From: Escherichia coli | GTDB taxonomy: Bacteria > Pseudomonadota > Gammaproteobacteria > Enterobacterales > Enterobacteriaceae | Length of the DNA stretch: 64,000 nt | Direction: 5' to 3' (one strand) | Assembly (NCBI RefSeq): GCF_016903815.1 | Contig: NZ_CP069973.1 | Shown: piece after piece, positions 285-55,777 of the stretch | Layout of the letters: each line of letters opens with the position of its first letter | Numbering within the stretch: position 1 is the stretch's first letter | Position numbers and translations under genes: made by a program | Notes under the pieces: generated by a model | What the model was told of the DNA's origin: nothing | What the model saw: the letters and a program-made list of their open reading frames with translations, nothing else | Databases searched by the model: none

Positions 285-990
285 ATATCCTCCGGCATAG
301 CCGGAGGTTTTTCAAATGCGCCTATAAGGCTCTCTTACCAGCCGCGCCCTAACAGGCGCACACGATCTGACATTTGCATCCAACTTCGTTACTTACGGCC
401 CGTAAACGGGCTGCCCGGATAGGGAATCGATAACTGCTCTCCCATTTTATCCTCTTCAAGCTGGTGCTTTATGTAATCCTGTATCTTCGCCGTGTTCTTA
501 CCCACTGTATCGACGTAGTACCCTCTGCACCAGAACTCCCTGTTCCTGTATTTGAATTTCAAATCACCAAACTGCTCGTAAAGCATCAGACTGCTTTTCC
601 CTTTCAGATATCCCATAAACCCGGATACGCTCATTTTGGGCGGGATCTCCACAAGCATATGGATATGATCTGCACAGCATTCAGCTTCCAGAATCCGTAC
701 GCTTTTCCACTCACACAGCTTTCTCAAAATACTGCCTATTGCTCTACGCTTCTCTCTGTAGAACACCTGTCTTCGGTATTTTGGCGCAAAAACTATGTGA
801 TATTTACAGTTCCATCGGGTGTGCGCTAAGCTCTTTTCGTTCCCCATTGGGACCCCCTTTTGATTTCTTGTTTGACACTTGCAGTTGCCAGACCGCAAGG
901 TGTTTTAACAAATCAAAAGGGGTTTTAATAACTGGCTCAAAGCTGAAAGCTTTCCGGAACCCCCAGCCTAGCTGGGGGTTTTCTGTGCAC
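285..990 (-). mobile_element. IS200-like insertion sequence (IS200/IS605 family) in the gnd-ugd intergenic region; boundaries approximate
   Basis: Carries a Y1-type transposase gene (389..847) flanked by perfect hairpins at 289..307 and 958..980; total size about 0.7 kb as expected for IS200. Ends inferred from hairpins, not from alignment. Confidence 0.6.
389..847 (-). CDS. tnpA: IS200-type transposase TnpA (Y1 HuH transposase)
   Basis: Translation MGNEKSLAHTRWNCKYHIVFAPKYRR...HIHMLVEIPPKMSVS...CRGYYVDTVGKN has the HuH motif and catalytic Tyr region of IS200 TnpA; start trimmed from ORF 389..898 to the Met giving about 152 aa. Confidence 0.85.
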   Translation of the reverse strand: MGNEKSLAHTRWNCKYHIVFAPKYRRQVFYREKRRAIGSILRKLCEWKSVRILEAECCADHIHMLVEIPPKMSVSGFMGYLKGKSSLMLYEQFGDLKFKYRNREFWCRGYYVDTVGKNTAKIQDYIKHQLEEDKMGEQLSIPYPGSPFTGRK

Positions 991-2547: not shown

Positions 2548-3567
2548 TTAATCATCTGAATATCCATTGGGGTTTTGCACTTGCCATTTCCAAGCATCTC
2601 GAATCATATCAGCTAAATCTTTTTTAGCTCTCCAATTTAATTCTTCATAAGCTTTTGAAGGATCTGACCAACATTCAGCGATGTCACCGGGACGCCTACC
2701 AACAAATATATGTGGTACAGCGACATTTGTTATTTGTTCAAAAGTTTTTATTAAGTCAAGAACCGAATAACCTTTTCCAGTACCTAAATTATAGATCTTA
2801 CAATTCTCCCCTTCATTCGATGCCTTTACCGCTGCAACATGTCCTTCGGCAAGATCCATAACATGAATATAATCACGCACACCAGTACCATCATGGGTAT
2901 TATAATCATTACCGAAAATATGAACCTCATTGAGTTTACCTATTGCGGTTTGGCAAATATATGGCATAAGATTATTAGGTTTTCCTCTTGGATCTTCCCC
3001 TAATAATCCTGATGTGTGAGCCCCAACAGGATTAAAATAACGCAAAATAGTACACCGAAATGAACTATTCGAATAACATATATCCGATAGAATTTTTTCT
3101 ATTATTAGTTTAGATGTACCATATGGATTAGTTGTATGTCCAACTTCATTTGACTCTTTTATAGGAATACTCTTTGGTGATCCATATACTGTAGCAGATG
3201 AACTAAAAATAAATCTCATTACATCATGTCGTAACATCTCTTCAAGCAATGCTAGAGTTCCGACGACATTATTATCATAATAACTTATAGGTGAACTAAT
3301 CGATTGATCTACTGATTTTAAACCGGCAAAATGTATAACAGCATCAATATTATAACTATTAAAGATTTGATTAAGTACTGTTCTATTTCTAATGTCACCT
3401 TCTATAAATGATGCCTTTCTTAAGCAAATATTGTTAATCCTTTTTAATACTGATAAATGCGAGTTAGATAAATTATCAATTATGATAACTTCGTAGCCAG
3501 CATCTAATAACGACACGACAGTATGAGAACCTATATACCCTAATCCACCAGTTACAAGCAATTTCAT
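2548..3567 (-). CDS. UDP-hexose 4-epimerase (GalE family), O-antigen cluster
   Basis: 339 aa; MKLLVTGGLGYIGSHTVVSLL Rossmann motif, YGxxK (YGTSK) catalytic motif, GalE-like throughout; AT-rich. Confidence 0.8.
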   Translation of the reverse strand: MKLLVTGGLGYIGSHTVVSLLDAGYEVIIIDNLSNSHLSVLKRINNICLRKASFIEGDIRNRTVLNQIFNSYNIDAVIHFAGLKSVDQSISSPISYYDNNVVGTLALLEEMLRHDVMRFIFSSSATVYGSPKSIPIKESNEVGHTTNPYGTSKLIIEKILSDICYSNSSFRCTILRYFNPVGAHTSGLLGEDPRGKPNNLMPYICQTAIGKLNEVHIFGNDYNTHDGTGVRDYIHVMDLAEGHVAAVKASNEGENCKIYNLGTGKGYSVLDLIKTFEQITNVAVPHIFVGRRPGDIAECWSDPSKAYEELNWRAKKDLADMIRDAWKWQVQNPNGYSDD

Positions 3568-3605: not shown

Positions 3606-4343
3606 TTAGACTCGTTTTAACAAGGCATGAAAAAAATAATAAATGATATATTTAATTGAATGTAAGAATGAAAGGCGACGGTTTTTTCTATAAATATTCC
3701 ACTGCCAGGCTATTGCCTTAATTTTATTTGAGGATAAAGAATGTTCATTTACACGATATTTAGCTAAACACTCTTGTATACAATAAGCTCTATTGGTCAC
3801 TGATATTATATCCAACCACATTATATAATCTTCATGTCCTTCATTTACTTGGTTAAATATACCCAGTTTTTCCCTATTATATATACCTGTCAGGTTACCA
3901 ATAAAATTACTTTTAAGCATCATATCATAAGTTATTATTTCTGGTGAAATTCGAGCATTAATATATTCTTTTTCATTTGAAAATGTTATAAAATTACTGC
4001 ATACCAAATCCCAACCGTCTTCTAATTTCTCCATCTGTAAAGAAAGTTTGTTTTTAATCCACATATCATCACTATCTATAAAGGCAACATAATTGCCTTT
4101 ACATATATTAAGTGCAATATTTCTTGATTCCGCGACGCCTTTGTTATTTCTGTTTTTAATTACTGTTATTCTTTCATCTTGAAATTTGCCAGCTAATTCG
4201 AATGTATTATCATGCGATGCATCATCGATAATATATAGATGCCAATCCTTAAAGTCTTGATCAATTACAGAGTTTACAGCTTGTTCTATTGTTGCAGACG
4301 CATTATAAGCAGGCATTATTATCGAAACAGTTTCTCTTACCAT
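3606..4343 (-). CDS. Glycosyltransferase, family 2-like (O-antigen)
   Basis: 245 aa; N-terminal IIMPAYNASATIEQAVNSV...YIIDDASHDNT and a DSDD motif typical of GT-A fold GT2 enzymes. Confidence 0.7.
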   Translation of the reverse strand: MVRETVSIIMPAYNASATIEQAVNSVIDQDFKDWHLYIIDDASHDNTFELAGKFQDERITVIKNRNNKGVAESRNIALNICKGNYVAFIDSDDMWIKNKLSLQMEKLEDGWDLVCSNFITFSNEKEYINARISPEIITYDMMLKSNFIGNLTGIYNREKLGIFNQVNEGHEDYIMWLDIISVTNRAYCIQECLAKYRVNEHSLSSNKIKAIAWQWNIYRKNRRLSFLHSIKYIIYYFFHALLKRV

Positions 4344-4346
4344 ATT

Positions 4347-5399
4347 TTATATTCCAAGTAGTGATATCCATTTATGAATAATTGCATCAGCATTGTATTT
4401 CCTTGAATTTTTAATAGCATTAGTACTAAAAATGTTTGATAAATTATCATCAGAAGTCAATTTTCTTAACTTCTGTATAAAAAGCTCTCTGTTTTTAAAA
4501 GGGATAAGAAAACCATTAACATTATCAGTAATAATTTCTGCCGGGCCAGTTGGACAATCATATGCAACACTCGGGATTCCAAAACTCTGGGACTCAATCA
4601 ACACCATAGGTAATCCTTCATATAACGAAGTCATCGCATATATTTTGGCAGCATTATAGTAATTGCAAATTTCATCTGTTGTTTTAAACATTTTGATAGA
4701 TGACATTCCAGCTATGGCTTTTTCAAGAATCCTTTTATTAGGGCCATCACCAATGATATATAACGTCCAATTAGGTATATTTGCCTCATGCCAAATTTCA
4801 ATCAACTCATTAAAATTCTTTTGCTCTGTAAATCGTCCAACAGCGATCACAATATTTTCCCGTTGGTCATATGGTTTTATTATGTTATTGGATGTATCAA
4901 ATGGATTAATATTTGGTATTTGAATAACGTTTTTAATACCATATTTTGTAGTTAATAAATTATAATCATGCGAAGTTAAAACAATTACTTTTTTTGCTAT
5001 GTAATATGAAAATATTTTTATTAGCTGTATTGCTTTTTTAAAACTATTTAAGCCTACATGCTCATGGAAATATATATCATGCAGCCTGATAGCTTTCGCT
5101 AATATTCCACACTCCAGCGATAAGCGTCCCATCGACTCAACAATAACTTTATGTTTATTCTTCTTACAAAAAATCAAATAGGACAATAGAGAATAATAGC
5201 GCCATCCATTTCCATATTTAACAGAGATTTTATTTGATAAGAAATAGAAAGGATTGGCATGTTTTTTTTGTAATGAGAAAATTTCGACCTCAGCATTTTC
5301 TATATTACTTGATAATATATTTGATAATAATGCTGTAACTCTTTCTGTACCGCCCTTATTAGTAATATCAGAAATAATGAAACTAATTTTATTTTTCAT
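4347..5399 (-). CDS. Glycosyltransferase, GT-B fold (GT4-like) (O-antigen)
   Basis: 350 aa; C-terminal TSLYEGLPMVLIESQSFGIPSVAYDCPTGPAEII resembles the EX7E donor-binding region of GT4 enzymes. Confidence 0.65.
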   Translation of the reverse strand: MKNKISFIISDITNKGGTERVTALLSNILSSNIENAEVEIFSLQKKHANPFYFLSNKISVKYGNGWRYYSLLSYLIFCKKNKHKVIVESMGRLSLECGILAKAIRLHDIYFHEHVGLNSFKKAIQLIKIFSYYIAKKVIVLTSHDYNLLTTKYGIKNVIQIPNINPFDTSNNIIKPYDQRENIVIAVGRFTEQKNFNELIEIWHEANIPNWTLYIIGDGPNKRILEKAIAGMSSIKMFKTTDEICNYYNAAKIYAMTSLYEGLPMVLIESQSFGIPSVAYDCPTGPAEIITDNVNGFLIPFKNRELFIQKLRKLTSDDNLSNIFSTNAIKNSRKYNADAIIHKWISLLGI

Positions 5400-6328
5400 T
5401 TTTTGTTTCTCATAATATTACGAACTATTAGTCTTCTATACAGATATTGCATATTATAAATTGATAACAATACTGTAAGAAATATAAAGAAAAATCTTCT
5501 ATACATTGATTTTTGTTGCACTGCTAAAGCTAAACAACGACTAGAGGTAGAATGGAGTTTCTCGATAAGAATAGAGGAACTTAGCTTTTTATGCATACTC
5601 AAAACATCAAAATTATCTCTCCCTCTTCTAATTCTAAGTTTATGGAGTTTTAACACGTAATTATGCGCTTTTCTTTGAAGTAAACTAGCAACACTTGCAC
5701 TATTGCCCTGTCGATGTCTAATGTACATTAGATACTCAGGGTGATTATCACATTTATAACCCCGATCCAAAGCTCTTAATATAAAATCATAATCTTCAGC
5801 ATAAGGTATTTCCCTATAACCTTGTAACTCATCATATACCTCCCTCTTAGCTAACCAAATGTGAGCAATTGGAGAGACATATTTAGACACCTTTTTAACT
5901 ATATCTTCTCCAACAGGTGAGATACTTTTTGTCAAATGCTCACCTATCTCATTAATTGAGTGCATTTGACATCCAACAATATCTAAATCATTCGCCTCGA
6001 GATAATGCAATTGTTTTTCAATTCTATCAGGTGCTGCGATATCATCCCCGTCAAATCGCGCAATATATTGCCCTTTAGCTAACAATAACCCCTGATTTAA
6101 CGATTTTACAATTTTCTGATTTTCCTTATTATATATTATTTTAATCCTACTATCTGTACGCGCTAGATTTTGTATTTTCTCCCGCGTATTATCAGTTGAA
6201 TAATCATCAATTATTATTATTTCTATTTTTTTATAAGTTTGTTCAATAATACTATTTATGGCTTCATCAATCCATGCTCCGACATTATACGTCGGAATTA
6301 ATATTGAAATTAATGGTTCATTTTTCAT
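5396..6328 (-). CDS. Glycosyltransferase, family 2-like (O-antigen)
   Basis: 310 aa; ISILIPTYNVGAWIDEAINSIIEQTYKKIEIIIIDDYSTDNT GT2 signature; 4-nt overlap with the downstream gene. Confidence 0.7.
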   Translation of the reverse strand: MKNEPLISILIPTYNVGAWIDEAINSIIEQTYKKIEIIIIDDYSTDNTREKIQNLARTDSRIKIIYNKENQKIVKSLNQGLLLAKGQYIARFDGDDIAAPDRIEKQLHYLEANDLDIVGCQMHSINEIGEHLTKSISPVGEDIVKKVSKYVSPIAHIWLAKREVYDELQGYREIPYAEDYDFILRALDRGYKCDNHPEYLMYIRHRQGNSASVASLLQRKAHNYVLKLHKLRIRRGRDNFDVLSMHKKLSSSILIEKLHSTSSRCLALAVQQKSMYRRFFFIFLTVLLSIYNMQYLYRRLIVRNIMRNKK

Positions 6329-7455
6329 AACTTTTGATTACCTAAATATCTGGTTTCGTTATAAATAACAGCATTCAATATAAATAAAAATGGTGAATAT
6401 GCACCAAATAGCGAAATACCACTGATACATACTGGCAACCAAATATACAATGAATTAAAATTTGTCTTTTTAAGGCTATAAAAAATAAAAGTTATAAAAA
6501 GAAAAGACCCAATAAAACCAAATTCTAAAACTAAAGTTACATATATGTTATGTGCAAAAATCCCTAGTAATTGTTCTGTGTTTCCAAGCCCAACACCAAA
6601 CATATGTGTCATAAGTGATTGCGTAGTGTAAAATTCAAATGCTTGGCTAATAATGTAGAATTTAGAATTAAAACTCCCATCAATATTTGAATAATTGCTA
6701 TTTTCAAATAAGTAGCTTATTGACATGTAAATAAATACACATATGACAAATAAAAAAACAAGTGCTGAACGCTTTCCTATCTTTGCCTTATTATTCAGAA
6801 CATATAACATAGCAAGCAGCGTTACCATTGCAGCTCTTGACATTGTTAAAAATAGCAGAATATATGTTATGTACCTTGTATATTTGAAGTTATAGATTTT
6901 ATTATTTTTAAGAAACAATAAAAAACCTAAGATGGAAATATCTATTAATGCTGTAAAATTTGAATCAAAGTAGAATAAACTTTTTTTGAATGCATATAAA
7001 ATACCTTCTGATAGATTACCTATAATGACTCTAGTAATCAACTCCAGAAACATGAACATTACAAAAAACATCAAAAAATTTTTATAACATTTAATTCGTG
7101 TATCATAGTTTAGCACCATAAATACTTCATTTACTCCAACGCTAATAACCATCGAGTAAAAAAACAGGAAGGGTGTGATGTAATTTGGAGCTTCAGGATA
7201 CCCTGTTGTTTGGGTTTTATAATAGATACCTATAACCTGACACAGAAGAATTGCGAAAGCAAAAATAATAGTTACCATGCTAAACTTTGAAATTTTTGCC
7301 TTAACAAATATTAGCATTATTATAATACTTAACAACCCTGCACCATATATATAAGCAGGATTAATAGCAAGAGAATTTATGCTCAAAAATGCACAACATA
7401 AAAATGCCGTAAGATACTTACCGGATCTTTGTTTGTTAATTTGATTTTCGTTCAT
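6325..7455 (-). CDS. wzy: O-antigen polymerase
   Basis: 376 aa, very hydrophobic with many predicted TM segments and a large loop, in the canonical wzy position of a Wzx/Wzy cluster; low sequence conservation is expected for Wzy. Confidence 0.65.
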   Translation of the reverse strand: MNENQINKQRSGKYLTAFLCCAFLSINSLAINPAYIYGAGLLSIIIMLIFVKAKISKFSMVTIIFAFAILLCQVIGIYYKTQTTGYPEAPNYITPFLFFYSMVISVGVNEVFMVLNYDTRIKCYKNFLMFFVMFMFLELITRVIIGNLSEGILYAFKKSLFYFDSNFTALIDISILGFLLFLKNNKIYNFKYTRYITYILLFLTMSRAAMVTLLAMLYVLNNKAKIGKRSALVFLFVICVFIYMSISYLFENSNYSNIDGSFNSKFYIISQAFEFYTTQSLMTHMFGVGLGNTEQLLGIFAHNIYVTLVLEFGFIGSFLFITFIFYSLKKTNFNSLYIWLPVCISGISLFGAYSPFLFILNAVIYNETRYLGNQKL

Positions 7456-8464
7456 TCAAATTACTCGAATATGGTGACTGTAGAATTTCATTAATAAGAT
7501 GATTAATATCATACTTTCTAAGTATATTTTGCTCTATAATTACATTATTTTTTTTTAAAAATGATTTTAACGCATCGATATTACAATCCTGCTCCTTATA
7601 TATGAATATATTATCTGCATTATAAAAATCATATTCGGTAATACTTTCGTTATTTGTTATTAACTTTTTATTATAGAATAGGGCTTCCAATGTTCTAATT
7701 GTCAGACCTCCTTGTCCCGGTTGAACAATTTCAAGAATAGCTGTTGTTTGAAATAATTTATCAAGATACTCGTCATAATTCATTGCATTTTTTGCTAATA
7801 GTCTCTCACATTCATCATAATGCTTATTTTTATCAGGCAAAACACTAATTGAAAAGCTCAAGGAAGCATCGTCTAATAACTTTGCAAAGGTATTTAAAAG
7901 TTCAAGCCGCCCTTTATCTACCCCAATAAAGAAAATATCGAACATTACAGGATTGGTTAATTCCTCACACAGTTTTTTATTTAATACTTGACGACTAAAT
8001 TCCAATGAGTAAACTTGGGGATGATAATTTAGTTTATATTTAACCGAGTCATTATAATCAAACGTCCAAACTTGAACCCCAGTAATTTTTAATGTGATTA
8101 ATAGAATCTTAAACTCTATTTCTGAGATGTTCAATGTTCGTCTAGGATTCCATAACCAAATGGCTTGATTGGCACAAAACGAAAACTTATATACGCAAGA
8201 AGATATTCCTTTATAATCCTCTATACCAAAATAAATTGCATGATCATTTTTTGAGTGAATTTTCCTTTTTATATACGCAATGACAATCAAAAATAATGGT
8301 TTTATCCTTGATTTATACAAATTGACAAGAATATTTTTAGTTGCGCAAATATTTGTGATTTCAGTTAAATTATAAAAATATATTTTTTCCGAAGATAACT
8401 TTGAAAAAATAATCTCCGTTAAAAAATAATCATTTTTGACCAAATGTGTTATTTTTTTTACCAT
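7436..8464 (-). CDS. Putative glycosyltransferase, WecF (Fuc4NAc transferase, GT56)-like
   Basis: 342 aa; weak similarity by eye to WecF (KYKLNYHP versus RYKLFYPL; C-terminal GGLTIRTLEALFYNKKLITN). Assignment tentative. Confidence 0.4.
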   Translation of the reverse strand: MVKKITHLVKNDYFLTEIIFSKLSSEKIYFYNLTEITNICATKNILVNLYKSRIKPLFLIVIAYIKRKIHSKNDHAIYFGIEDYKGISSCVYKFSFCANQAIWLWNPRRTLNISEIEFKILLITLKITGVQVWTFDYNDSVKYKLNYHPQVYSLEFSRQVLNKKLCEELTNPVMFDIFFIGVDKGRLELLNTFAKLLDDASLSFSISVLPDKNKHYDECERLLAKNAMNYDEYLDKLFQTTAILEIVQPGQGGLTIRTLEALFYNKKLITNNESITEYDFYNADNIFIYKEQDCNIDALKSFLKKNNVIIEQNILRKYDINHLINEILQSPYSSNLNERKSN

Positions 8465-9708
8465 GATTTATATATGCCCCGAGATGCTACAAGTAAAATA
8501 ACGAAATCTAAACTGACTCTAATTGTCCACGCATATGCAGCCCCTATTACACCAAAATGTATAATAAAGAAATACAATCCAACAAGGTAAGGAATTATTT
8601 CAATGCAATGTATTAATGCCGTGATTTTCGCTTTACCTGCAGCCTGGATTGTAGCAAATGGAATCTGAGCATATGAATTAAATAAAAATCCTATCAGAAG
8701 AACTTGCAAAATATAAGTTGAATTTTCAGCATATTCTTTACCTAACCATATATTTAGGATTGTATACGATAATCCCACTCCAATAATTACAGCAGGTATG
8801 CAAACCATGCTGAGCATAATATAGGCTATTGTTTCATTTTTTTTTCTTTCCGAAAGTGTCTTTGCAGCACTTAATTTTGGAAATAATGCTCTTGCCAAAG
8901 CCCAGGGAATATTAATCAATCTATTAATAAATTCTGAAGGCGCTATATAAAACCCAACGCTTTTTGCCCCCAGAAGATTAGATAATATAAACCGATCAAA
9001 ATAACTCATGACCGGACTAATAATATTACTTACAGTAATCCAGCCACCAAACTTTAACAGTCGAAACAAAACTTGCTTATGAAATCTAATACCCGCTGTT
9101 AATACTATTTCTTTTGCACAATAATATGAAATAATTAACGAAACCATTCGACCACAAACTAATCCAATCATTGCACATGTCAGGGTTGGATGTAGAATGA
9201 TGAAAAAAGCTGGAAGCCCCGCTACTAATGAACTACTAATACATCGTTGAATATTTATATTAAAAAAATCTTCCATGCCCTCCAAATATGATACAAATAT
9301 CTGATTTAGCAAAAATAAAGGTATAGTTATAGTCAGTATCTTAAACGAAGATACAACATCATCCTTATATCTAGGGCTAACCTTTAACAAAGACACTAGG
9401 TTATCAATGTTCATAAACAAAAGAGCTGCACCAACTAAACCCAGTATAATTATAGCAAAATTAGATGTTGCAATAATTTTATTTAATTCAGATTTATTAG
9501 TTCTATTAAACGCAATTTCTCTAATAACAGCTCTTGTTAATCCTGCGTCAAAAATACTGGCATAACCAACAATAGCTGTACAAAGAGCAAACAAGCCAAA
9601 CCTTTCTGCTCCCAATTCACGAGCTATATATCCTAATGCAGGCAAAGCGACAATGGTTGGAATAATGTATCCACCAAAGTTCCATATACTATTTTTTAAT
9701 AAACTCAT
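8458..9708 (-). CDS. wzx: O-antigen flippase
   Basis: 416 aa polytopic membrane protein with a polysaccharide-biosynthesis (MOP) type N-terminus, directly downstream of rmlC. Confidence 0.7.
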   Translation of the reverse strand: MSLLKNSIWNFGGYIIPTIVALPALGYIARELGAERFGLFALCTAIVGYASIFDAGLTRAVIREIAFNRTNKSELNKIIATSNFAIIILGLVGAALLFMNIDNLVSLLKVSPRYKDDVVSSFKILTITIPLFLLNQIFVSYLEGMEDFFNINIQRCISSSLVAGLPAFFIILHPTLTCAMIGLVCGRMVSLIISYYCAKEIVLTAGIRFHKQVLFRLLKFGGWITVSNIISPVMSYFDRFILSNLLGAKSVGFYIAPSEFINRLINIPWALARALFPKLSAAKTLSERKKNETIAYIMLSMVCIPAVIIGVGLSYTILNIWLGKEYAENSTYILQVLLIGFLFNSYAQIPFATIQAAGKAKITALIHCIEIIPYLVGLYFFIIHFGVIGAAYAWTIRVSLDFVILLVASRGIYKSW

Positions 9709-9714
9709 ATTTTC

Positions 9715-10263
9715 CTAAAAATAATCAATTTTGTTAATGTGAGATGCACATTTATCTTTAGTGGAAAGGATAACATTTATATTCAATTCGGGCCAATCAA
9801 TGTCAATTGTATTATCATTCCAAATAATATTTCTTTCATTTTCTTTATTGTAATAATTATTCGTCTTATATAAAACCTCAGCAGTGTTAGATAATACTAA
9901 AAATCCATGAGCAAACCCTTCTGGAATCCATAATTGATGCTTATTCTCAGCAGATAAGTTCACCCCAACCCATTTTCCAAAGGTAGGCGAAGATTTACGA
10001 ATATCAACCGCAACATCAAAAACTTCACCGACCATACAGCGCACCAGTTTTGCTTGAGCATAGGGTTCTAACTGGTAATGAAGACCACGTAAAACACCTT
10101 TACTTGACTTCGAATGGTTATCCTGAACAAACTTAACTTTACGGCCTACCGCTTCTTCGAAAACCTTCTGGTTAAAGCTCTCAAAAAAGAAACCGCGCTC
10201 GTCGCTAAAAACTTTTGGTTCAAAAATCAGTACATCTGGAATTTCTGTTTTAATTACGTTCAT
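9715..10263 (-). CDS. rmlC: dTDP-4-dehydrorhamnose 3,5-epimerase
   Basis: 182 aa; MNVIKTEIPDVLIFEPKVFSDERGFF...VQDNHSKS...GVLRGLHYQ is RmlC/RfbC. Confidence 0.9.
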   Translation of the reverse strand: MNVIKTEIPDVLIFEPKVFSDERGFFFESFNQKVFEEAVGRKVKFVQDNHSKSSKGVLRGLHYQLEPYAQAKLVRCMVGEVFDVAVDIRKSSPTFGKWVGVNLSAENKHQLWIPEGFAHGFLVLSNTAEVLYKTNNYYNKENERNIIWNDNTIDIDWPELNINVILSTKDKCASHINKIDYF

Positions 10264-10267
10264 TTTA

Positions 10268-11146
10268 TTAATAACCTTTAATCATTTTGAGCAGATACTG
10301 ACCATAAGCATTTTTTTTCAGCGGTTCAGCTAATACTTTCACCTGCTCAGCATCAATAAACCCTTTACGGTAAGCAATTTCTTCCGGGCAGGAAACTTTC
10401 AACCCCTGACGCTCTTCAATTGTAGCAATGAAGTTGCTTGCTTCAATAAGACTTTGATGTGTCCCCGTGTCCAGCCATGCATAACCACGCCCCATCATGG
10501 CAACGGATAAACGCCCCTGTTCCATATAAATACGGTTAATATCGGTAATTTCCAGTTCACCACGGGCAGAAGGCTGAAGGTTTTTCGCCATTTCCACAAC
10601 GTCGTTATCATAGAAATAAAGCCCGGTTACCGCATAATTACTTTTTGGTTGTAGCGGTTTTTCTTCAAGGCTAATTGCCGTACCGTTTTTATCAAACTCA
10701 ACGACACCATAGCGTTCAGGATCATTAACGTGATAGGCAAATACCGTTGCACCACTCTCTTTGTTAACAGCGGCATCCATTAACTTCGGCAGGTCGTGAC
10801 CGTAGAAGATATTATCACCAAGTACCAAAGCACAATCATCACCACCGATAAACTCTTCACCGATGATAAATGCCTGCGCAAGACCATCCGGACTCAGTTG
10901 CACTTTGTACTGAAGATTCAGGCCCCACTGGCTCCCGTCACCCAGCAGTTGTTGAAAACGAGGAGTATCCTGTGGCGTACTGATAATCAAAATATCGCGA
11001 ATACCCGCCAACATCAGTGTAGAGAGCGGGTAATAGATCATCGGTTTATCATAAATAGGTAATAGCTGTTTACTGACAGCCATAGTCACAGGATAAAGAC
11101 GAGTACCAGAACCGCCCGCTAAAATAATACCTTTACGCGTTTTCAT
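10268..11146 (-). CDS. rmlA: Glucose-1-phosphate thymidylyltransferase
   Basis: 292 aa; [21 protein letters not shown] nucleotidyltransferase motif, RmlA/RfbA. Confidence 0.9.
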
Positions 11147-11203
11147 TTCATCATTCCTTTTAATTCATCTTGCTCCACCATCACGAACAAGATGCAAAAA
11201 CTA

Positions 11204-12103
11204 TTAAATAGCTGTAGTCGTAAATAATTCGTTGAGCATGCGTTTCACGCCAATCTGCCAGTCAGGCAAGACAAGCGCAAAGTTCTGCTGAAATTTTTCT
11301 GTATCAAGGCGAGAGTTATGCGGACGACGAGCTGGTGTAGGATAGGCTGTTGTTGGTACTGCGTTGAGCTTGTTGAGAGCAAGGGCAATGCCTGCTTTGC
11401 GCGCCTCTTCAAAAACGAGCGCAGCATAATCGTGCCAGGTTGTGGTACCACTGGCTACCAAATGGTACAAGCCTGCGACTTCCGGTTTATTCAGTGCTAC
11501 ACGAATGGCATGTGCCGTACAATCAGCCAGCAACTCTGCGCCAGTTGGCGCACCAAACTGATCATTAATAACGGCTAATTCTTCACGCTCTTTTGCCAGA
11601 CGTAACATTGTCTTGGCAAAATTGTTTCCTTTACCTGCATATACCCAGCTGGTCCGGAAAATAAGATGCTTCGCGCAATGTTCCTGTAACGCTTTTTCTC
11701 CGGCTAACTTGGTTTCACCGTAAACATTTAGCGGTGCGGTTGCATCCGTCTCCAGCCATGGCGTGTCGCCATTTCCAGGGAATACGTAGTCAGTTGAGTA
11801 ATGAATTACCCAAGCCCCAACTTCATTAGCCGCTTTTGCAATCGCTTCAACACTTGTCGCATTGAGTAATTGTGCAAATTCGGGTTCTGACTCAGCCTTA
11901 TCTACCGCGGTATGAGCAGCAGCATTAACAATAACGTCAGGACGAATTTTTTTGACGGTTTCAGCCACACCTTCTGGGTTACTAAAATCACCACAATAAT
12001 CAGTAGAGTGAACATCAAGAGCAATCAAATTACCCAAAGGTGCCAGCGCACGCTGTAGTTCCCAACCTACCTGCCCTGTTTTGCCGAAAAGGAGGATATT
12101 CAT
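11204..12103 (-). CDS. rmlD: dTDP-4-dehydrorhamnose reductase
   Basis: 299 aa; [24 protein letters not shown] is RmlD/RfbD. Confidence 0.9.
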   Translation of the reverse strand: MNILLFGKTGQVGWELQRALAPLGNLIALDVHSTDYCGDFSNPEGVAETVKKIRPDVIVNAAAHTAVDKAESEPEFAQLLNATSVEAIAKAANEVGAWVIHYSTDYVFPGNGDTPWLETDATAPLNVYGETKLAGEKALQEHCAKHLIFRTSWVYAGKGNNFAKTMLRLAKEREELAVINDQFGAPTGAELLADCTAHAIRVALNKPEVAGLYHLVASGTTTWHDYAALVFEEARKAGIALALNKLNAVPTTAYPTPARRPHNSRLDTEKFQQNFALVLPDWQIGVKRMLNELFTTTAI

Positions 12104-13188
12104 TACTGGCGGCCCTCATAGTTCTGTTCAATCCACGATTGATAGGCACCACTTTTCACATTATCAACCCATTTTGTATTGGACAGGTACCATTCCACTG
12201 TCTTCCGAATCCCGCTCTCAAACGTTTCCTGTGGTTTCCAACCCAATTCGCGGCTAATCTTCTCAGCATCAATCGCATAACGGCGATCATGTCCCGGGCG
12301 GTCGGCAACATAAGTAATTTGCTCACGATAAGATTTCTCTTTCGGTACAATCTCATCCAACAAATCACAAATAGTGAGCACTACATCGATGTTTTTCTTT
12401 TCGTTGTGTCCACCAATGTTATAAGTTTCACCCGCTTTACCTTCGGTTACGACGGTATATAACGCACGCGCATGATCTTCAACATACAGCCAGTCACGAA
12501 TTTGATCCCCTTTGCCATAAATAGGTAATGCCTTACCTTCCAGAGCATTAAGAATTACTAGTGGAATCAATTTTTCCGGAAAGTGATAAGGACCGTAGTT
12601 ATTCGAACAGTTAGTCACAATGGTCGGTAAACCATAGGTACGTTTCCACGCGCGGACTAAATGATCGCTGGATGCTTTTGATGCGGAATAAGGGCTGCTT
12701 GGCGCGTAAGCTGTCGTCTCAGTAAATAAGGGTAATTCTTCGTTATTATTTACTTCATCTGGATGAGGCAAATCACCATAGACTTCGTCAGTAGAAATAT
12801 GATGAAAACGGAAGCTATTTTTCTTGTCGCTATCAAGAGCAGACCAGTAATTGCGAGCGGCTTCCAAAAGGACATAAGTACCAACAATATTGGTTTCAAT
12901 AAATGCCGCAGGACCTGTAATTGAACGGTCAACATGGCTTTCAGCAGCCAGGTGCATCACTGCATCCGGCTGATGCTGAGCAAAAATCCGTGCCATTGCA
13001 GCAGCATCGCAAATATCCGCATGTTCAAAAATATAGCGTTCAGAATCAGAAACATCAGCAAGTGATTCCAGGTTTCCGGCGTACGTTAATTTATCGACAT
13101 TAACAACACTATCCTGCGTATTATTTATAATGTGACGAACTACAGCAGAACCAATAAATCCTGCGCCACCAGTAACAAGTATCTTCAC
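12103..13188 (-). CDS. rmlB: dTDP-glucose 4,6-dehydratase
   Basis: 361 aa; [21 protein letters not shown]...YxxxK SDR motif, RmlB/RfbB. Confidence 0.9.
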
Positions 13189-13263
13189 TCTTTTATTCCA
13201 TATTACTTCAGAGCATGCAGTGAAATAAGCGGCTCTTAGTTTGATTAATAGAGGTATTAATGC

Positions 13264-13275
13264 ACGCTACCGCCC
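13264..13275 (-). promoter_or_regulatory. ops element (GGCGGTAGCGTG) within a JUMPstart sequence upstream of the rml/O-antigen operon
   Basis: Exact 12-mer CACGCTACCGCC on the plus strand, which is GGCGGTAGCGTG in the direction of rmlB transcription, in the galF-rmlB intergenic region. Confidence 0.75.
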
Positions 13276-13559
13276 CTGGCTTTACTGCTACCAGTGCACT
13301 GCATGCATGTCTACGATGTGACGAGCGTTACCCACTCGCGCTTAGCTCGAAAAATTCAAACGCTAATTGTCTTACCAATCCGCTCTGGAAACAAGGAAAA
13401 TCCTGGAAAACTTTGACTAAAATCCTATTGCTAACTCGTTGTTATTCTGATTGTTTATATAAAACAACGGCAGGAATATTCGCAGCAAATTACTTTCGCC
13501 ACGAATCTTCACTGCCGTTATAATTTTCTTATCAACCGTTACATTCGGTCAGATTTTCA

Positions 13560-14453
13560 TTATTCGCTTAACAGCTTCTCAATACCTTTACGGAACTTCG
13601 CCCCTTCTTTCAGGTTGCGCAGTCCATACTTCACAAACGCCTGCATATAACCCATTTTTTTACCGCAGTCGTAGCTGTCACCTGTCATCAGCATGGCATC
13701 AACGGACTGTTTTTTCGCCAATTCAGCAATGGCATCAGTCAGTTGAATACGTCCCCATGCACCAGGCTGAGTGCGTTCAAGTTCCGGCCAAATATCGACA
13801 GAAAGCACATAGCGACCAACGGCCATGATGTCTGAGTCCAGTGTTTGCGGCTGATCCGGTTTTTCGATGAATTCAACAATGCGGCTGACTTTACCTTCGC
13901 AATCCAGCGGTTCTTTGGTCTGAATAACAGAGTATTCAGAGAGGTCACCCGGCATACGTTTTGCCAGCACCTGGCTACGACCCGTTTCGTTGAAACGTGC
14001 AATCATGGCAGCAAGGTTGTAGCGCAGCGGGTCGGCGCTGGCGTCGTCGATCACAACGTCTGGCAGCACCACGACAAATGGATTGTCACCAATGGCGGGT
14101 CGTGCACACAAAATGGAGTGACCTAAACCTAAAGGTTCGCCCTGACGCACGTTCATAATTGTCACGCCCGGCGGGCAAATGGACTGTACTTCCGCCAGCA
14201 GTTGGCGCTTCACGCGCTGCTCAAGGAGAGATTCTAATTCATAAGAGGTGTCGAAGTGGTTTTCGACCGCGTTCTTGGACGCGTGAGTCACCAGGAGGAT
14301 TTCTTTGATCCCTGCAGCCACAATCTCGTCAACAATGTACTGAATCATTGGCTTGTCGACGATCGGTAGCATCTCTTTGGGTATCGCCTTAGTGGCAGGC
14401 AACATATGCATCCCAAGACCCGCTACCGGTATAACTGCTTTTAAATTCGTCAT
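13560..14453 (-). CDS. galF: UTP-glucose-1-phosphate uridylyltransferase paralog GalF
   Basis: 297 aa; [43 protein letters not shown] is GalF/GalU family, in the conserved position upstream of the O-antigen cluster. Confidence 0.9.
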
Positions 14454-14684
14454 TATTTTCCTACCTCTAAGTGGCTGATAGTGCGTAAATTATTGTCATA
14501 GGTTAGCCAAACGGTATGGCTATATACCAAGCATAACTTTGATTAAACCTTACGATAACACTACACACCATCAGCATCTGGGTTACTCGGATTACTCGGA
14601 AATCCACATACTGATAATTTAATCAGTACCTCATTCCGAATAATCGTAGTCCAACCTGGTCCTTTTTTCTCTGACTCGTCTGCA

Positions 14685-15680
14685 TTACTCAGAAACAAAC
14701 GTTATGTCGTCTTTTTTGGCATGGACGAATTCATACTGCAGAGTTCGATCCAGACCTTGCGACAGCGTATACGGTGCCACAAAACCTGAAGAATGCACTT
14801 TCGTTGCGTCAAACTGTGTTGTTGCGCAGAATTTTTTCACGCGCACAGAGCTGACAGCGTATTTTTTGCCCGTAATTTTGCTCAGGATATCAAAGCAATA
14901 TCCACCCAGCATTCCTAGTGGGTAAGGCAAGTGCATAGAAGGGATCTTTTTGTTCAGGCTTTGTTCAACTTCAGCAACCAACTGGTTCATGTTCAGGTCT
15001 GGCTTATCAACATAGTTATAAACCTCATAACCTGCGGCAACATTCTTCAGTTTGTACTTGATAAACTCAACAATGTTTCCAACATAAGCCATGGACTTAT
15101 AGTTAGTCCCTGCGCCCACCATCATAAACTTGCCGCCAGCGATCTGTTTCAGCAAGTTATAGACGTTACCGCGGTTGCGTTCACCGAAGATAACGGTAGG
15201 ACGGATGATAGTTAATGAACGTTCTGTTGGTGCTTTGTTATACCATTCACGTAGCACTTCCTCTGCCTGCCACTTACTTTTGCCGTAGTGGTTGAAAGGA
15301 TCGTGTGGATGGTTTTCGTCAGGGTTGTGTTTGTTCAAACCATAAATAGCAACGGAACTGGTAAAGATGATATTTTTAACGCCATTTTTTTCCATGGCCG
15401 CCAGCACATTGCGGGTACCCTGAACGTTGACATCATAATAGAGAGAAGTAGGGCTGACGTCATCGCGGTGTTCCGCTGCCAGTAGTACAACAGTGTCAAA
15501 ACCGGCTAACGCCTGGTCGAGTGCCTGTTGATCACGAACATCGCCAATCTGTGTGATTTCTGGATAAAAGTGGCTCTGCTGTTTGTCCAGGTTCTTGATA
15601 TTAAAGTCAGCAATTGCCGTTTCAAGTAGTCGGGTTCCTACGAATCCGGAAGCTCCTATGAGCAAAACGTTATCGTTCAT
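14685..15680 (-). CDS. gne: NAD-dependent sugar epimerase, Gne/Z3206-like
   Basis: 331 aa; MNDNVLLIGASGFVGTRLLE Rossmann motif, YGKSK catalytic motif; located between galF and wcaM, where gne sits in some E. coli serogroups (absent in K-12). Confidence 0.7.
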   Translation of the reverse strand: MNDNVLLIGASGFVGTRLLETAIADFNIKNLDKQQSHFYPEITQIGDVRDQQALDQALAGFDTVVLLAAEHRDDVSPTSLYYDVNVQGTRNVLAAMEKNGVKNIIFTSSVAIYGLNKHNPDENHPHDPFNHYGKSKWQAEEVLREWYNKAPTERSLTIIRPTVIFGERNRGNVYNLLKQIAGGKFMMVGAGTNYKSMAYVGNIVEFIKYKLKNVAAGYEVYNYVDKPDLNMNQLVAEVEQSLNKKIPSMHLPYPLGMLGGYCFDILSKITGKKYAVSSVRVKKFCATTQFDATKVHSSGFVAPYTLSQGLDRTLQYEFVHAKKDDITFVSE

Positions 15681-15837
15681 AAATCACTTTAGTCTGGTTG
15701 TTACGTAAGAAACACAAGATAAAGATGAGTACCTTCCCTGAGTAGTCAATGCTGCCCAGCCCCAGCTTTAACAGTTAGTGTGAGGATTATAATCTTTTAG
15801 AACATTATATCCAGTAAGTTTATGAATGGTCGCAAAT

Positions 15838-17232
15838 CTACTCTCTCCGTTCCGGCAATCTAAAGTTAATCTTTTCCACATTAACAATATGGTGATTAAT
15901 CCTGTCGATATCGACGGAGCTTTGCCCCGTTTCATTCACTGCATGAATATTCGCAAGTGAAAGCAGCGTCTCACGCTTTGCCATAAAGACGCCGCGAACG
16001 TCTTTGCGCATGTCGAAGTTCATGCGCAATGCGGCTCCAACTGAGGATTCCTGCATCACTTTGATATTACGCATAAAAAGATGCTGCGGTTTATTGTGAA
16101 GCTCCAGCGAGGCACGCTTCATCTCAATGTTAGTCAGTGCCACAAAGGAGGCAGCATTCCCGGCGGAGATTTGGATGCCGCGCAATTTATAAGCAAGATG
16201 GGTGTTATCCAGTTGAATATTATTCACTCGGAAATTTTGCGGTATCGAGAGATATTTGCCTTTAATTACCCCATAGCCGATTAACATCCCGGCGCTATTA
16301 ATCATTTCAATATTATCAACCACGAAATTGTCACAACCGTAAATAGCAACTGTCGCGTTATCAATGCCTGCTTTCTTACTGAAATCCGGCGTGATATTGC
16401 GGGCTTTGATATTACGAATAACAAAATGTTTACCATTTTCAACATGGATCAACTGCCGACAATCCGATCCCGTGATATTCGCCACGACAAAGTTTTTCAC
16501 TGCCTGATCTTCTGGGTAATTATTACCGTAAGTGCTTCCCGCAAGGCCTATGCCGATGCCCCAGTTGATTTTGCCGTTGGTACAGTTGATGCGCTCGATG
16601 ATGTGATCGGATATCAAAATATCGCGGTCGTTAATCGCCACGTTCCATTCAATGGCATCGCCCTGTAAGTCGCTGAACTTACAATTGGTGATGTTGGCAC
16701 CGATTATCTGGTTATGAAATCCTTGGCGTAAGATGGCGTAATTAGCGTGGCTGACAGTGAGGTTATCGATGGTCAGGTTACGCATGACCCGTTTGTTTTT
16801 GCCGCCGATATAGATCTGCGTCACCGGGCCAAAGCCGCTCATCGTCAGCCCTTTGATGGTGCAGTCAGAACCACGCACATCCAGGGTGATGTTATGCATA
16901 CTGCCGCCCTTCTCCCCTGTCACCTGGCTGCCGTCCTGTAAGACAAATCGCCCTCTGCCATTGCCGCGCAGGCTTCCAAGGATGTGTAACGTTTTACCTG
17001 CAGGAATGAAGATGCCGGTGTTGATATTGTCACAAACCAATCCGGCAGGCACGACGACTGTTTGCCCTTCGCTGAAGGCTTGTTTAAATGAGGCGATCCA
17101 GTCGTGTGGGTTGTAGTCGTTAATGTTAACGCTTTGTCGGGCGGGAAGTGCACGGGCGAAAGGGGTATGGAGGAAGGCAAGCGCCGAGCTTGCCGTCAGG
17201 AAGGTGCGTCGGGAGAGTTTTTTAAATGGCAT
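15838..17232 (-). CDS. wcaM: Colanic acid biosynthesis protein WcaM
   Basis: 464 aa with a Tat-like signal ([20 protein letters not shown]); matches WcaM in length and position. Confidence 0.85.
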
Positions 17233-38925: not shown

Positions 38926-38937
38926 CACGCTACCGCC
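38926..38937 (-). promoter_or_regulatory. ops element (GGCGGTAGCGTG) within a JUMPstart sequence in the wza leader
   Basis: Exact CACGCTACCGCC on the plus strand, about 180 bp upstream of the wza start; the same 21-mer context (cacgctaccgcccctggcttt) recurs at 13264. Confidence 0.75.
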
Positions 38938-54562: not shown

Positions 54563-54739
54563 AAGAAATCCTTTCTTAGAGAATTATTGAGGTCCGGTAT
54601 CATACCGACTGCAACAATGAAATATGAGCAGGCAAAGCAACTTTCAGAATTAGGCCCGGCGGCGCAGAAAATTTTGCTATTCGCCTCGCAAGAACGGAGA
54701 GCCGTCGATTGACACTAAGGGCGGAGTGACATAATTTCA

Positions 54740-54885
54740 GGAGTGAGGGTTAGGGAGAGGTTTCCCCCTCCCCCTGGTGTTCTTAGTAAGCCTGGAAGCT
54801 AATCACTAAGAGTATCACCAGTATGATGACGTGCTTCATCATAACCCTTTCCTTATTAAAAGCCCTCTTCTCCGGGAGAGGGTTT
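54740..54885 (+). ncRNA. sibA: Sib antisense sRNA, copy 1 (antitoxin of ibsA); ends approximate
   Basis: Plus-strand promoter-like TTGACA (54709..54714) and CATAAT-like -10, transcript fully antisense to the ibsA ORF, hairpin ccctcttctccgggagaggg at 54863..54882. Confidence 0.55.
54783..54842 (-). CDS. ibsA: Type I toxin IbsA (19-aa hydrophobic peptide)
   Basis: Reverse complement translates MMKHVIILVILLVISFQAY-stop, identical to my recollection of IbsA. Confidence 0.8.
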   Translation of the reverse strand: MMKHVIILVILLVISFQAY

Positions 54886-55077
54886 CCCGTTTCAGCGTCC
54901 CGCTGAAATCGTCGGCTTACCTCCTTTCGCCCTGAATGCAGTCTATCGCTAACGCGTGAACAAAATAGTTTCCTCTGTGATTATTGCGTAACGACTCGCA
55001 AAGAATATTTGCTGGCAGGATCGCAGACTGCAAAGCCTGCAGATTGACAATCTTATCGTGAAGGCATAATTTCAGGA

Positions 55078-55220
55078 GTGAGGGTAGAGCGGGGTTTCCC
55101 CCGCCCTGGTAGTCTTAGTAAGCGGGGAAGCTTATGACTAAGAGCACCACGATGATGAGTAGCTTCATCATGACCCTTTCCTTATTTAAGGCCCCTTCCT
55201 CGGGAGGGGCTTTCCCGTTT
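55078..55220 (+). ncRNA. sibB: Sib antisense sRNA, copy 2; ends approximate
   Basis: Second repeat unit with TTGACA at 55044..55049 and a CATAAT -10; antisense to ibsB. Confidence 0.55.
55114..55170 (-). CDS. ibsB: Type I toxin IbsB (18-aa hydrophobic peptide)
   Basis: Reverse complement translates MMKLLIIVVLLVISFPAY-stop. Confidence 0.8.
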
Positions 55221-55405
55221 CAGCGTCCCGCTGAAATCGTCGACTTACCTCCTTTCGCCCTGTATGCAGTCTATCGCTGACTTGCGGATAAAATAGTTTC
55301 CAGTGTGATTATTGCGTAACGTCTCGCAAAGAATATTTGCTGGCAGGATCGCAGACTGCAAAGCCTGCAGATTGACAATCTTATCGTGAAGGCATACTTT
55401 CAGGA

Positions 55406-55550
55406 GTGAGGGTAGAGCGGGGTTTCCCCCGCCCTGGTAGTCTTAGTATGCTGGGTAGCTAATCACTAAGAGCACCACGATGATGATCCACTTCATCATG
55501 ACCCTTTCCTTATTTAAGGCCCCTTCCTCGGGAGGGGCTTTCCCGTTTCA
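55406..55550 (+). ncRNA. Sib-family antisense sRNA, copy 3; ends approximate
   Basis: Third repeat unit with TTGACA at 55372..55377 and CATACT -10-like hexamer; antisense to the third ibs ORF. Confidence 0.5.
55443..55499 (-). CDS. Ibs-family type I toxin, third copy (variant peptide)
   Basis: Reverse complement translates MMKWIIIVVLLVISYPAY-stop; same architecture as IbsA/IbsB with substitutions at positions 4-5 and 15. Confidence 0.7.
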   Translation of the reverse strand: MMKWIIIVVLLVISYPAY

Positions 55551-55777
55551 GCGTCCCGCTGAAATCATCGGCTTACCTCCTTTCGCCATGCACGTAGTCT
55601 ATCGCTAACGCGTAGATAAAATAGTTTCATGTGTTATTACTGGATGCGTGCTCGCAAATGTGCCCGCCATTCAGACGATTCCCGATAGTGTTTCATAATT
55701 CCTCCATTTTTCTCCCTTATTGGCTGGCTACACTAGTATCATTCCGCGAAACGTTTCAGGAAGAGAAACTCTTAACG

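Follow-up and report, generated by a model that had tools for sequence, protein, structure and literature searches.

The gene at positions 14685..15680 of the window (the whole 64,000-nt stretch of Escherichia coli contig NZ_CP069973.1, assembly GCF_016903815.1, that was analyzed) is very probably gnu, which encodes the Und-PP-GlcNAc 4-epimerase, an enzyme that epimerizes C4 of GlcNAc-PP-undecaprenol to give GalNAc-PP-undecaprenol and that we take to be EC 5.1.3.26. Together with a second, GalE-family gene whose product carries a cysteine at position 299, gnu would explain an O102 unit in which GalNAc occurs twice and GlcNAc not at all. Work published between 2010 and 2013 has already described the enzyme, the place of its gene, and the division of labor between gnu and gne. 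Our findings make three small additions to that knowledge, namely a probable explanation, through the Cys299 gene, of the earlier scoring of O102 as “gne missing,” the observation that the Gnu family has neither a solved structure nor a curated HMM, and a set of gene fusions that support action on lipid-linked intermediates. The features on which the analysis rests are listed in Table 1.

Table 1. Features of the gnu locus and the neighboring O-antigen cluster, listed from wcaM to the GalE-family gene
Feature	Position	Strand	Basis or remark
wcaM, last colanic acid operon gene, upstream neighbor of gnu	15838..17232	-	NF007517, 1015 bits vs cut-off 808
wcaM-gnu spacer	15681..15837	-	157 bp, 36.9% GC; absent from K-12 (alignment)
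gnu	14685..15680	-	331 aa, ATG start; ORF call
gnu-galF spacer	14454..14684	-	231 bp; travels with gnu, unlike the K-12 spacer (alignment)
galF, downstream neighbor of gnu	13560..14453	-	TIGR01105, 685 bits vs cut-off 659
JUMPstart/ops heading the O-antigen operon, downstream of galF	13263..13301	-	Rfam RF01707, 58.9 bits vs gathering score 35
ops sequence GGCGGTAGCGT	13264-13274		within JUMPstart
rmlB-rmlD-rmlA-rmlC, dTDP-L-rhamnose pathway	9715..13188	-	ORFs; RefSeq on 99.99%-identical DNA; rmlB NCBIfam match
O102-specific genes	3606..9708	-	29.8% GC
wzx	8458..9708	-	RefSeq O102 family flippase
342-aa protein	7436..8464	-	no family match
wzy	6325..7455	-	RefSeq O102 family polymerase
Glycosyltransferase GT2	5396..6328	-	Pfam
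Glycosyltransferase GT1-type	4347..5399	-	Pfam
Glycosyltransferase GT2	3606..4343	-	Pfam
GalE-family 4-epimerase, next to gnd	2548..3567	-	339 aa; TIGR01179, 451.8 bits; 33.6% GC

The wcaM-galF spacer and its gene

A sequence-only reading of this DNA had placed an epimerase gene between the colanic acid operon and galF and had described it as absent from K-12, and both observations are borne out. The ORF is a real gene, as judged from its match to the Pfam Epimerase family (PF01370, E 1e-30) and its 99.7% identity to an annotated, widely conserved protein. The ORF scan returned no competing frame longer than 94 aa over gnu or the spacer on either strand. In K-12 MG1655, only a gap of 174 bp, without a gene, separates galF from wcaM.

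A three-way alignment of the window, K-12, and O157:H7 revealed that the galF-wcaM spacer is wholly replaced, measuring 1384 bp here versus 174 bp in K-12. Because K-12 homology ends 7 nt past the wcaM stop codon and restarts at approximately the galF ribosome-binding site, the 1384-bp unit, made up of gnu, the 157 bp before it, and the 231 bp after it, is an alternative to the shorter spacer, and the gnu region has the appearance of an alternative wcaM-galF allele. The GC content of gnu is 44.9%, that of its neighbors 48-51%, and that of the serogroup-specific genes 30-34%. In strain G6/7, an IS1 element stands in place of gnu, and of this unit the gnu-galF spacer alone remains. We also considered a discrete mobile cassette carrying gnu and rejected it: no flanking direct or inverted repeats were found around the gnu region, and no RNA family was found in the spacers on either side of the gene.

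As for its expression, gnu follows the final gene of the colanic acid operon and precedes the JUMPstart/ops element that heads the O-antigen operon. A promoter scan, which reports consensus matches only, located a σ70-like site in the wcaM-gnu spacer (TGGATA-16-TATAAT, 15813..15786; 10 of 12 positions matching), and in the gnu-galF spacer a scan of the coding strand found no terminator-like hairpin. The gene may be transcribed from its own promoter upstream of JUMPstart.

Identity and family placement of the epimerase

The identity of the gene was established by comparison with the protein encoded at the same locus of O157:H7. The two proteins agree at 330 of 331 positions over their full length, the sole change being Ile112 here for Val in O157, and the genes are 98.4% identical at the DNA level. 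Proteomic work on O157:H7 lists Z3205 as galF and the adjoining Z3206 as “gne,” a 37-kDa protein (PMC3210124). Given this identity at the same locus and the listing of Z3206 beside Z3205 galF, the gene is the Z3206 orthologue. [quoted passage not shown] The O157:H7 enzyme (Z3206; Rush et al. 2010; clade D) shares its locus, length, and RefSeq product name with the protein described here, and O157, too, has GalNAc and no GlcNAc. The two cases differ by one conservative substitution and by the O-antigen cluster lying downstream, which is O157 there and O102 here.

The proposed name “gne-like” stands only in part. It points to the right protein, Z3206, but the label is obsolete and gnu is the correct one, as the substrate given in the literature is Und-PP-GlcNAc and the GalE model fails on this protein. 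For annotation, gnu (Und-PP-GlcNAc 4-epimerase) is therefore preferable to gne or galE.

The gene is widespread. The spacer DNA has 100%-identical counterparts in E. coli strain 7/2 and an O102:H6 strain, where the RefSeq product is Und-PP-GlcNAc 4-epimerase, and of 5426 complete E. coli genomes, 1323 contain the gnu segment, usually as one copy per genome and nearly always at 95-100% identity. Orthologues with 80-90% identity extend across the Enterobacterales, including Enterobacter, Cronobacter, Kluyvera, Salmonella, and others, mostly under generic or legacy names. In a search of 90% clusters, the top cluster is 99% identical, comprises 2299 member sequences, and bears the Und-PP-GlcNAc 4-epimerase name. 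At approximately 50% identity, where the Yersinia Gnu was sought, the clusters consist almost entirely of unnamed metagenome proteins.

A closer examination of the protein places it among the extended SDRs, with a further Pfam match to 3Beta_HSD (E 1e-26, 94 bits). It carries the motifs G9ASGFVG15 (GxxGxxG), S108, and Y132-G-K-S-K136 (YxxxK), and its S108, Y132, and K136 correspond in the alignment to GalE residues S124, Y149, and K153 of E. coli. Across 111 family representatives sharing 33-57% identity, S108 and Y132 are invariant, and position 136 is lysine or another basic residue in 99%. There is good support for a chemistry in which C4 is oxidized and then re-reduced on NAD.

The GalE equivalog TIGR01179 gives 70.6 bits on Gnu versus a cut-off of 262.3 and covers residues 5-170 only. 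By BLASTP, the protein is 30% identical to K-12 GalE over 299 residues, with 17% gaps, and 26% identical to the GalE-family protein of the window. No NCBIfam model scores Gnu at or above its cut-off, the best being HpnA with 95 bits versus 368. Because the GalE model fails, identity is confined to 26-30%, and no NCBIfam model reaches its cut-off, Gnu is not a GalE/Gne-type UDP-sugar epimerase; it belongs to a divergent extended-SDR clade (clade D). The last of these results is also the reason that the assignment to Gnu relies on the comparison with the O157 protein and not on an HMM. The clade A enzymes, such as E. coli GalE, Gne of Y. enterocolitica O:8, and Gne2 of E. coli O86, share with Gnu the extended SDR fold, the GxxGxxG motif, the Ser/Tyr/Lys center, and C4 epimerization through a 4-keto intermediate. 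However, the C-terminal substrate domains of the two groups do not align convincingly, and the substrate of clade A is nucleotide-linked, whereas that of Gnu is lipid-linked according to the literature.

The AF2 model of Gnu, computed from a 111-sequence alignment, has a pLDDT of 96.9 and a pTM of 0.93. Its nearest solved folds are sugar C4-epimerases, headed by 6wjb, the UDP-GlcNAc C4-epimerase of Pseudomonas protegens, with a TM of 0.72-0.76 and approximately 20% identity. A PDB sequence search returned no solved structure of a close relative, the best match being NSDHL (6jkg, E 2e-17). The Gnu family is without a solved structure and without a curated HMM. Nucleotide sugars are the ligands of all the nearest solved structures, none of which shows how a polyprenyl-PP-sugar would be bound, and the substrate of Gnu is not readable from these solved relatives.

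The SDRs of the 3-beta-HSD/NSDHL type and HpnA, which act on lipid-type substrates, supply the best PDB sequence and NCBIfam matches of Gnu. HpnA nevertheless falls far under its equivalog cut-off, the fold of Gnu is nearer to that of the sugar epimerases, and there is no sign of steroid or hopanoid chemistry. An assignment to the 3-beta-HSD/NSDHL type was rejected, given that the fold search ranks sugar 4-epimerases first and that the O157 orthologue has been characterized.

A probable lipid-linked substrate

The substrate is indicated by published work on the O157 enzyme, to which the present protein is 99.7% identical and which was found to act on UndPP-GlcNAc but not on UDP-GlcNAc (Rush et al. 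2010, as summarized in PMC3682973). In O157, UndPP-GlcNAc is made by WecA and converted by this enzyme to UndPP-GalNAc (PMC3682973). Cunneen, Liu, Wang, and Reeves (2013) placed the enzyme in clade D and named the gene gnu, whose presence or absence fits the chemistry of the O unit in 104 of 115 serogroups (PMC3682973). By analogy with O157, the substrate in the present strain would be Und-PP-GlcNAc and not UDP-GlcNAc. In O157:H7, gnu::Tn mutants phenocopy wecA mutants toward O-antigen-dependent phages (2026 preprint, bioRxiv 10.64898/2026.07.23.740414), and insoluble and high-density fractions are enriched in the Z3206 protein together with further enzymes of O-antigen synthesis (PMC3210124). 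The presence of gnu upstream of galF is a useful predictor of an O unit that begins with GalNAc, and as such it bears on serotype prediction, phage-receptor work, and glycoconjugate engineering.

The protein might instead be a soluble UDP-GlcNAc 4-epimerase, the “Gne” of the original naming, which would supply UDP-GalNAc to WecA or to glycosyltransferases. Wang et al. reportedly described this UDP-GlcNAc epimerase activity in 2002, and databases and papers still use older names, among them “putative UDP-galactose 4-epimerase,” “UDP-N-acetylglucosamine 4-epimerase,” and “gne (UDP-GalNAc-4-epimerase).” The fold also agrees with this reading, the best structural neighbor, 6wjb, being an epimerase of exactly this kind. 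We nevertheless consider it very unlikely, both because Gnu fails the GalE model and because such an activity would be redundant beside the GalE-family enzyme of the same strain, with its UDP-GlcNAc-permissive Cys299.

Domain fusions in the wider family also argue for a lipid-linked substrate. An exhaustive search of 1.84 billion representatives yielded 360 clusters of Gnu relatives at E<=1e-30. Among these, P0140, P0147, P0187, and P0189 are fused to GT4 glycosyltransferases, and P0248 is fused to a Bac_transf phosphoglycosyl transferase within a continuous gene of a polysaccharide cluster; the fused relatives are 39-48% identical to Gnu. The fusion partners are enzymes that produce or use polyprenyl-PP-sugars, so the fusions speak for a lipid-linked substrate of the Gnu family, although not for epimerization as such. 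Several basic residues conserved in the family (R160, R170, K195, R280, and K283) are candidate pyrophosphate binders.

The gene of P0248 adjoins a Polysacc_synt_2 dehydratase gene, a context that presumably resembles the lipid-linked 4-ketoreductase pathway of the WreV/WreU/WreQ system. WreQ of Rhizobium etli reduces UndPP-KdgNAc (UndPP-4-keto-6-deoxy-GlcNAc) to UndPP-QuiNAc (PMC11626204). Like Gnu, it is an SDR whose substrate is the first sugar once this is on undecaprenyl pyrophosphate, so that diversification follows the initiating transferase; it differs in being a reductase, whereas Gnu is an epimerase. The WreQ example and the Bac_transf fusion beside a dehydratase gene could suggest that the protein catalyzes a different redox reaction at C4 of a lipid-linked sugar, for instance as a WreQ-like 4-ketoreductase. 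Of the readings weighed here, we rate this one the least probable, with hardly any likelihood: relatives in such contexts are approximately 39% identical to Gnu, versus 99.7% for the characterized epimerase, and the annotation and Pfam matches of the O102 cluster include no 4,6-dehydratase for UDP-GlcNAc.

The O102 cluster and the second epimerase

The window carries the O102 O-antigen cluster: all of it from position 987 onward matches, with 99.99% identity, an O102:H6 chromosome that has “O102 family” wzx and wzy. At the IS200-type insertion, where a BLAST overlap was seen at 285-986, a possible 10-bp target-site duplication was dropped from consideration, as the two copies differ (gcaaaaataa versus gcacaaaaaa). 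The order of the cluster is galF, JUMPstart, rmlBDAC, wzx, the gene for the 342-aa protein, wzy, three glycosyltransferase genes, the GalE-family gene, and gnd. Neither the RefSeq labels nor the Pfam matches of the cluster include an initiating transferase gene of the Bac_transf or WecA type.

Whether the O antigen contains GalNAc had been put forward as a check on the gene, and the answer is affirmative: the O102 unit is tabulated with a single GalNAc in the main chain, another in the side chain, and no GlcNAc (PMC3682973 Table S2). With two GalNAc residues and no GlcNAc, O102 therefore needs both gnu and gne. In the same table, O102 is scored “need gnu Y,” with gnu present and correct, and as “gne missing,” one of the seven misfits of the 2013 gnu/gne survey (PMC3682973).

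This tabulated need weighs against the idea that gnu is a passenger that recombined in with the wcaM-galF spacer and is not required for O102, a case of “gnu in excess of need” (PMC3682973). The ORF is moreover intact and one conservative residue away from the functional O157 enzyme, and the O102 cluster lacks an initiating transferase of its own. Even though the IS1-mediated deletion seen in strain G6/7 indicates that gnu can be lost, we regard a passenger role as less probable still than a soluble UDP-GlcNAc epimerase and favor a gnu that provides the first sugar of O102.

The separate GalE-like epimerase that had been noted in the O-antigen cluster is the 339-aa protein encoded next to gnd. 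It scores above the cut-offs of both TIGR01179 (451.8 bits versus 262.3, over residues 2-335) and NF007956 (461.6 bits versus 394), is 53% identical to K-12 GalE, and is a genuine member of the GalE family (clade A). Its Cys299 aligns with Tyr299 of K-12 GalE and with a cysteine in the GalE chain 1lrk, in human GALE (1ek5), and in GalE of B. longum (6k0i). Against this protein, 1lrk, which we take to be the Y299C mutant of E. coli GalE, scores above wild-type E. coli GalE; the equivalent position in human GALE is presumably Cys307. [quoted passage not shown] Because Cys299 is a small residue that would enlarge the sugar pocket, the 339-aa protein is predicted to be a Gne-type enzyme interconverting UDP-GlcNAc and UDP-GalNAc, within a family whose GalE and Gne members are not yet separable by sequence alone (PMC3682973), and it probably acts on UDP-Glc/Gal as well. 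On balance, we lean toward the view that this Cys299 gene removes the “gne missing” exception of O102 and, separately, that the Gnu family, as yet without a solved structure or a curated HMM, has in its fusions a pointer to a lipid-linked substrate.

These assignments suggest the following pathway for O102, the order of whose steps is a proposal. WecA, encoded elsewhere, would first produce Und-PP-GlcNAc. Ser108, Tyr132, and Lys136 of Gnu, with bound NAD+, would then oxidize the C4-OH to a 4-keto intermediate, which Gnu would re-reduce from the opposite face, and the Und-PP-GalNAc so formed would hold the sugar with which the O102 unit starts. Glycosyltransferases would subsequently add Rha, provided by rmlBDAC, and the second, side-chain GalNAc, for which the predicted Gne-type enzyme would supply the UDP-GalNAc donor. 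The completed unit would be flipped by Wzx and polymerized by Wzy.

The earlier description of two accessory 4-epimerases flanking the rml genes needs to be modified accordingly in its geometry and its sense. Two epimerases are indeed present, but they bracket the whole cluster, with gnu lying beyond galF and the GalE-family gene lying next to gnd, approximately 6 kb from rml. Nor does “accessory” describe the pair well, as the two enzymes would not be redundant and would instead divide the labor, one serving the first sugar in lipid-linked form and the other a later sugar in nucleotide-linked form. The pairing of gnu with gne is known from E. coli O86, O125, and O130 and from Y. pseudotuberculosis O6/O7 (PMC3682973). 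In these serogroups, as here, a clade D gene serves the first GalNAc and a clade A gene a later GalNAc, and in those of E. coli, gnu likewise lies upstream of galF. The position of the clade A gene differs: in O86, gne is the first gene after galF, whereas in O102, the GalE-family gene is the last, next to gnd.

Loss, possible truncation and fusion in the Gnu family

The E. coli G6/7 locus (NZ_CP060061, 3001-4887) is a case of IS-mediated deletion that has removed gnu, the gene for the Und-PP-GlcNAc 4-epimerase located between wcaM and galF. In this genome, an IS1A element occupies the expected gnu position, wcaM is a truncated pseudogene, and only the 227-bp gnu-galF spacer remains. Several E. 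coli clusters (P0013-P0017, P0027 and P0056) comprise proteins of 296-305 aa that are 89-92% identical to Gnu and may represent truncated or divergent gnu alleles; their sole annotation is "NAD-dependent epimerase/dehydratase family protein."

Members of the family also occur as fusions, in which a Gnu-family SDR domain is joined to a transferase. These proteins (P0248, P0140, P0147, P0187 and P0189), which come from both metagenomic and genomic sources, have as partners either a Bac_transf phosphoglycosyl transferase or GT4 glycosyltransferases. The contig that encodes P0248 (L007, 5001-6944) additionally carries PglD-like, DegT and Polysacc_synt_2 genes.

Epimerase and candidate transferase in the O102 cluster

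The GalE-family epimerase that closes the O102 cluster on its gnd side is named GalE in RefSeq and carries a cysteine at the gatekeeper position, where this residue predicts a Gne-type enzyme. It is carried at ≥99% identity by 106 complete genomes, and O102 was scored as "gne missing" in Table S2 of Cunneen 2013 (PMC3682973). Only three recognisable glycosyltransferases are present in the cluster for an O unit that, according to the Liu 2020 review, bears a two-residue side branch; therefore, the 342-aa ORF between wzx and wzy, for which a Pfam search returned no match, may be an unrecognised transferase.

Features of the O102 cluster and its surroundings (window coordinates)
Feature	Position	Strand	Detail
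IS200-type Y1 transposase ORF	389..898	-	Pfam Y1_Tnp, E 5e-38
GalE-family epimerase, gnd end of O102 cluster	2548-3567	-	Cys299 at GalE Tyr299 gatekeeper position
342-aa ORF, wzx-wzy interval	7436-8464	-	"hypothetical" in RefSeq
JUMPstart RNA with ops sequence, galF-rmlB interval	13263-13301	-	Rfam, 58.9 bits
Second ops sequence, upstream of wza at head of colanic acid operon	38927-38937	-	Exact match

Inserted and repeated DNA

A BLAST comparison with the O102:H6 reference, which is elsewhere 99.99% identical to the window, revealed approximately 702 bp of extra DNA in the ugd-gnd interval (285-986) that is missing from that chromosome and contains the IS200-type transposase ORF. At the junction of this insertion, the BLAST alignments share a 10-bp overlap; no clean target duplication is present there, because the two 10-bp copies in the window differ in bases (gcaaaaataa versus gcacaaaaaa).

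Separately, self-comparison of the window identified internal repeats of approximately 600 bp, with 83-89% identity, at ~54700-55700. These correspond to tandem Ibs type I toxin loci, comprising ibsA and two Ibs-family genes, which the reference genome annotation places between yegL and mdtA.
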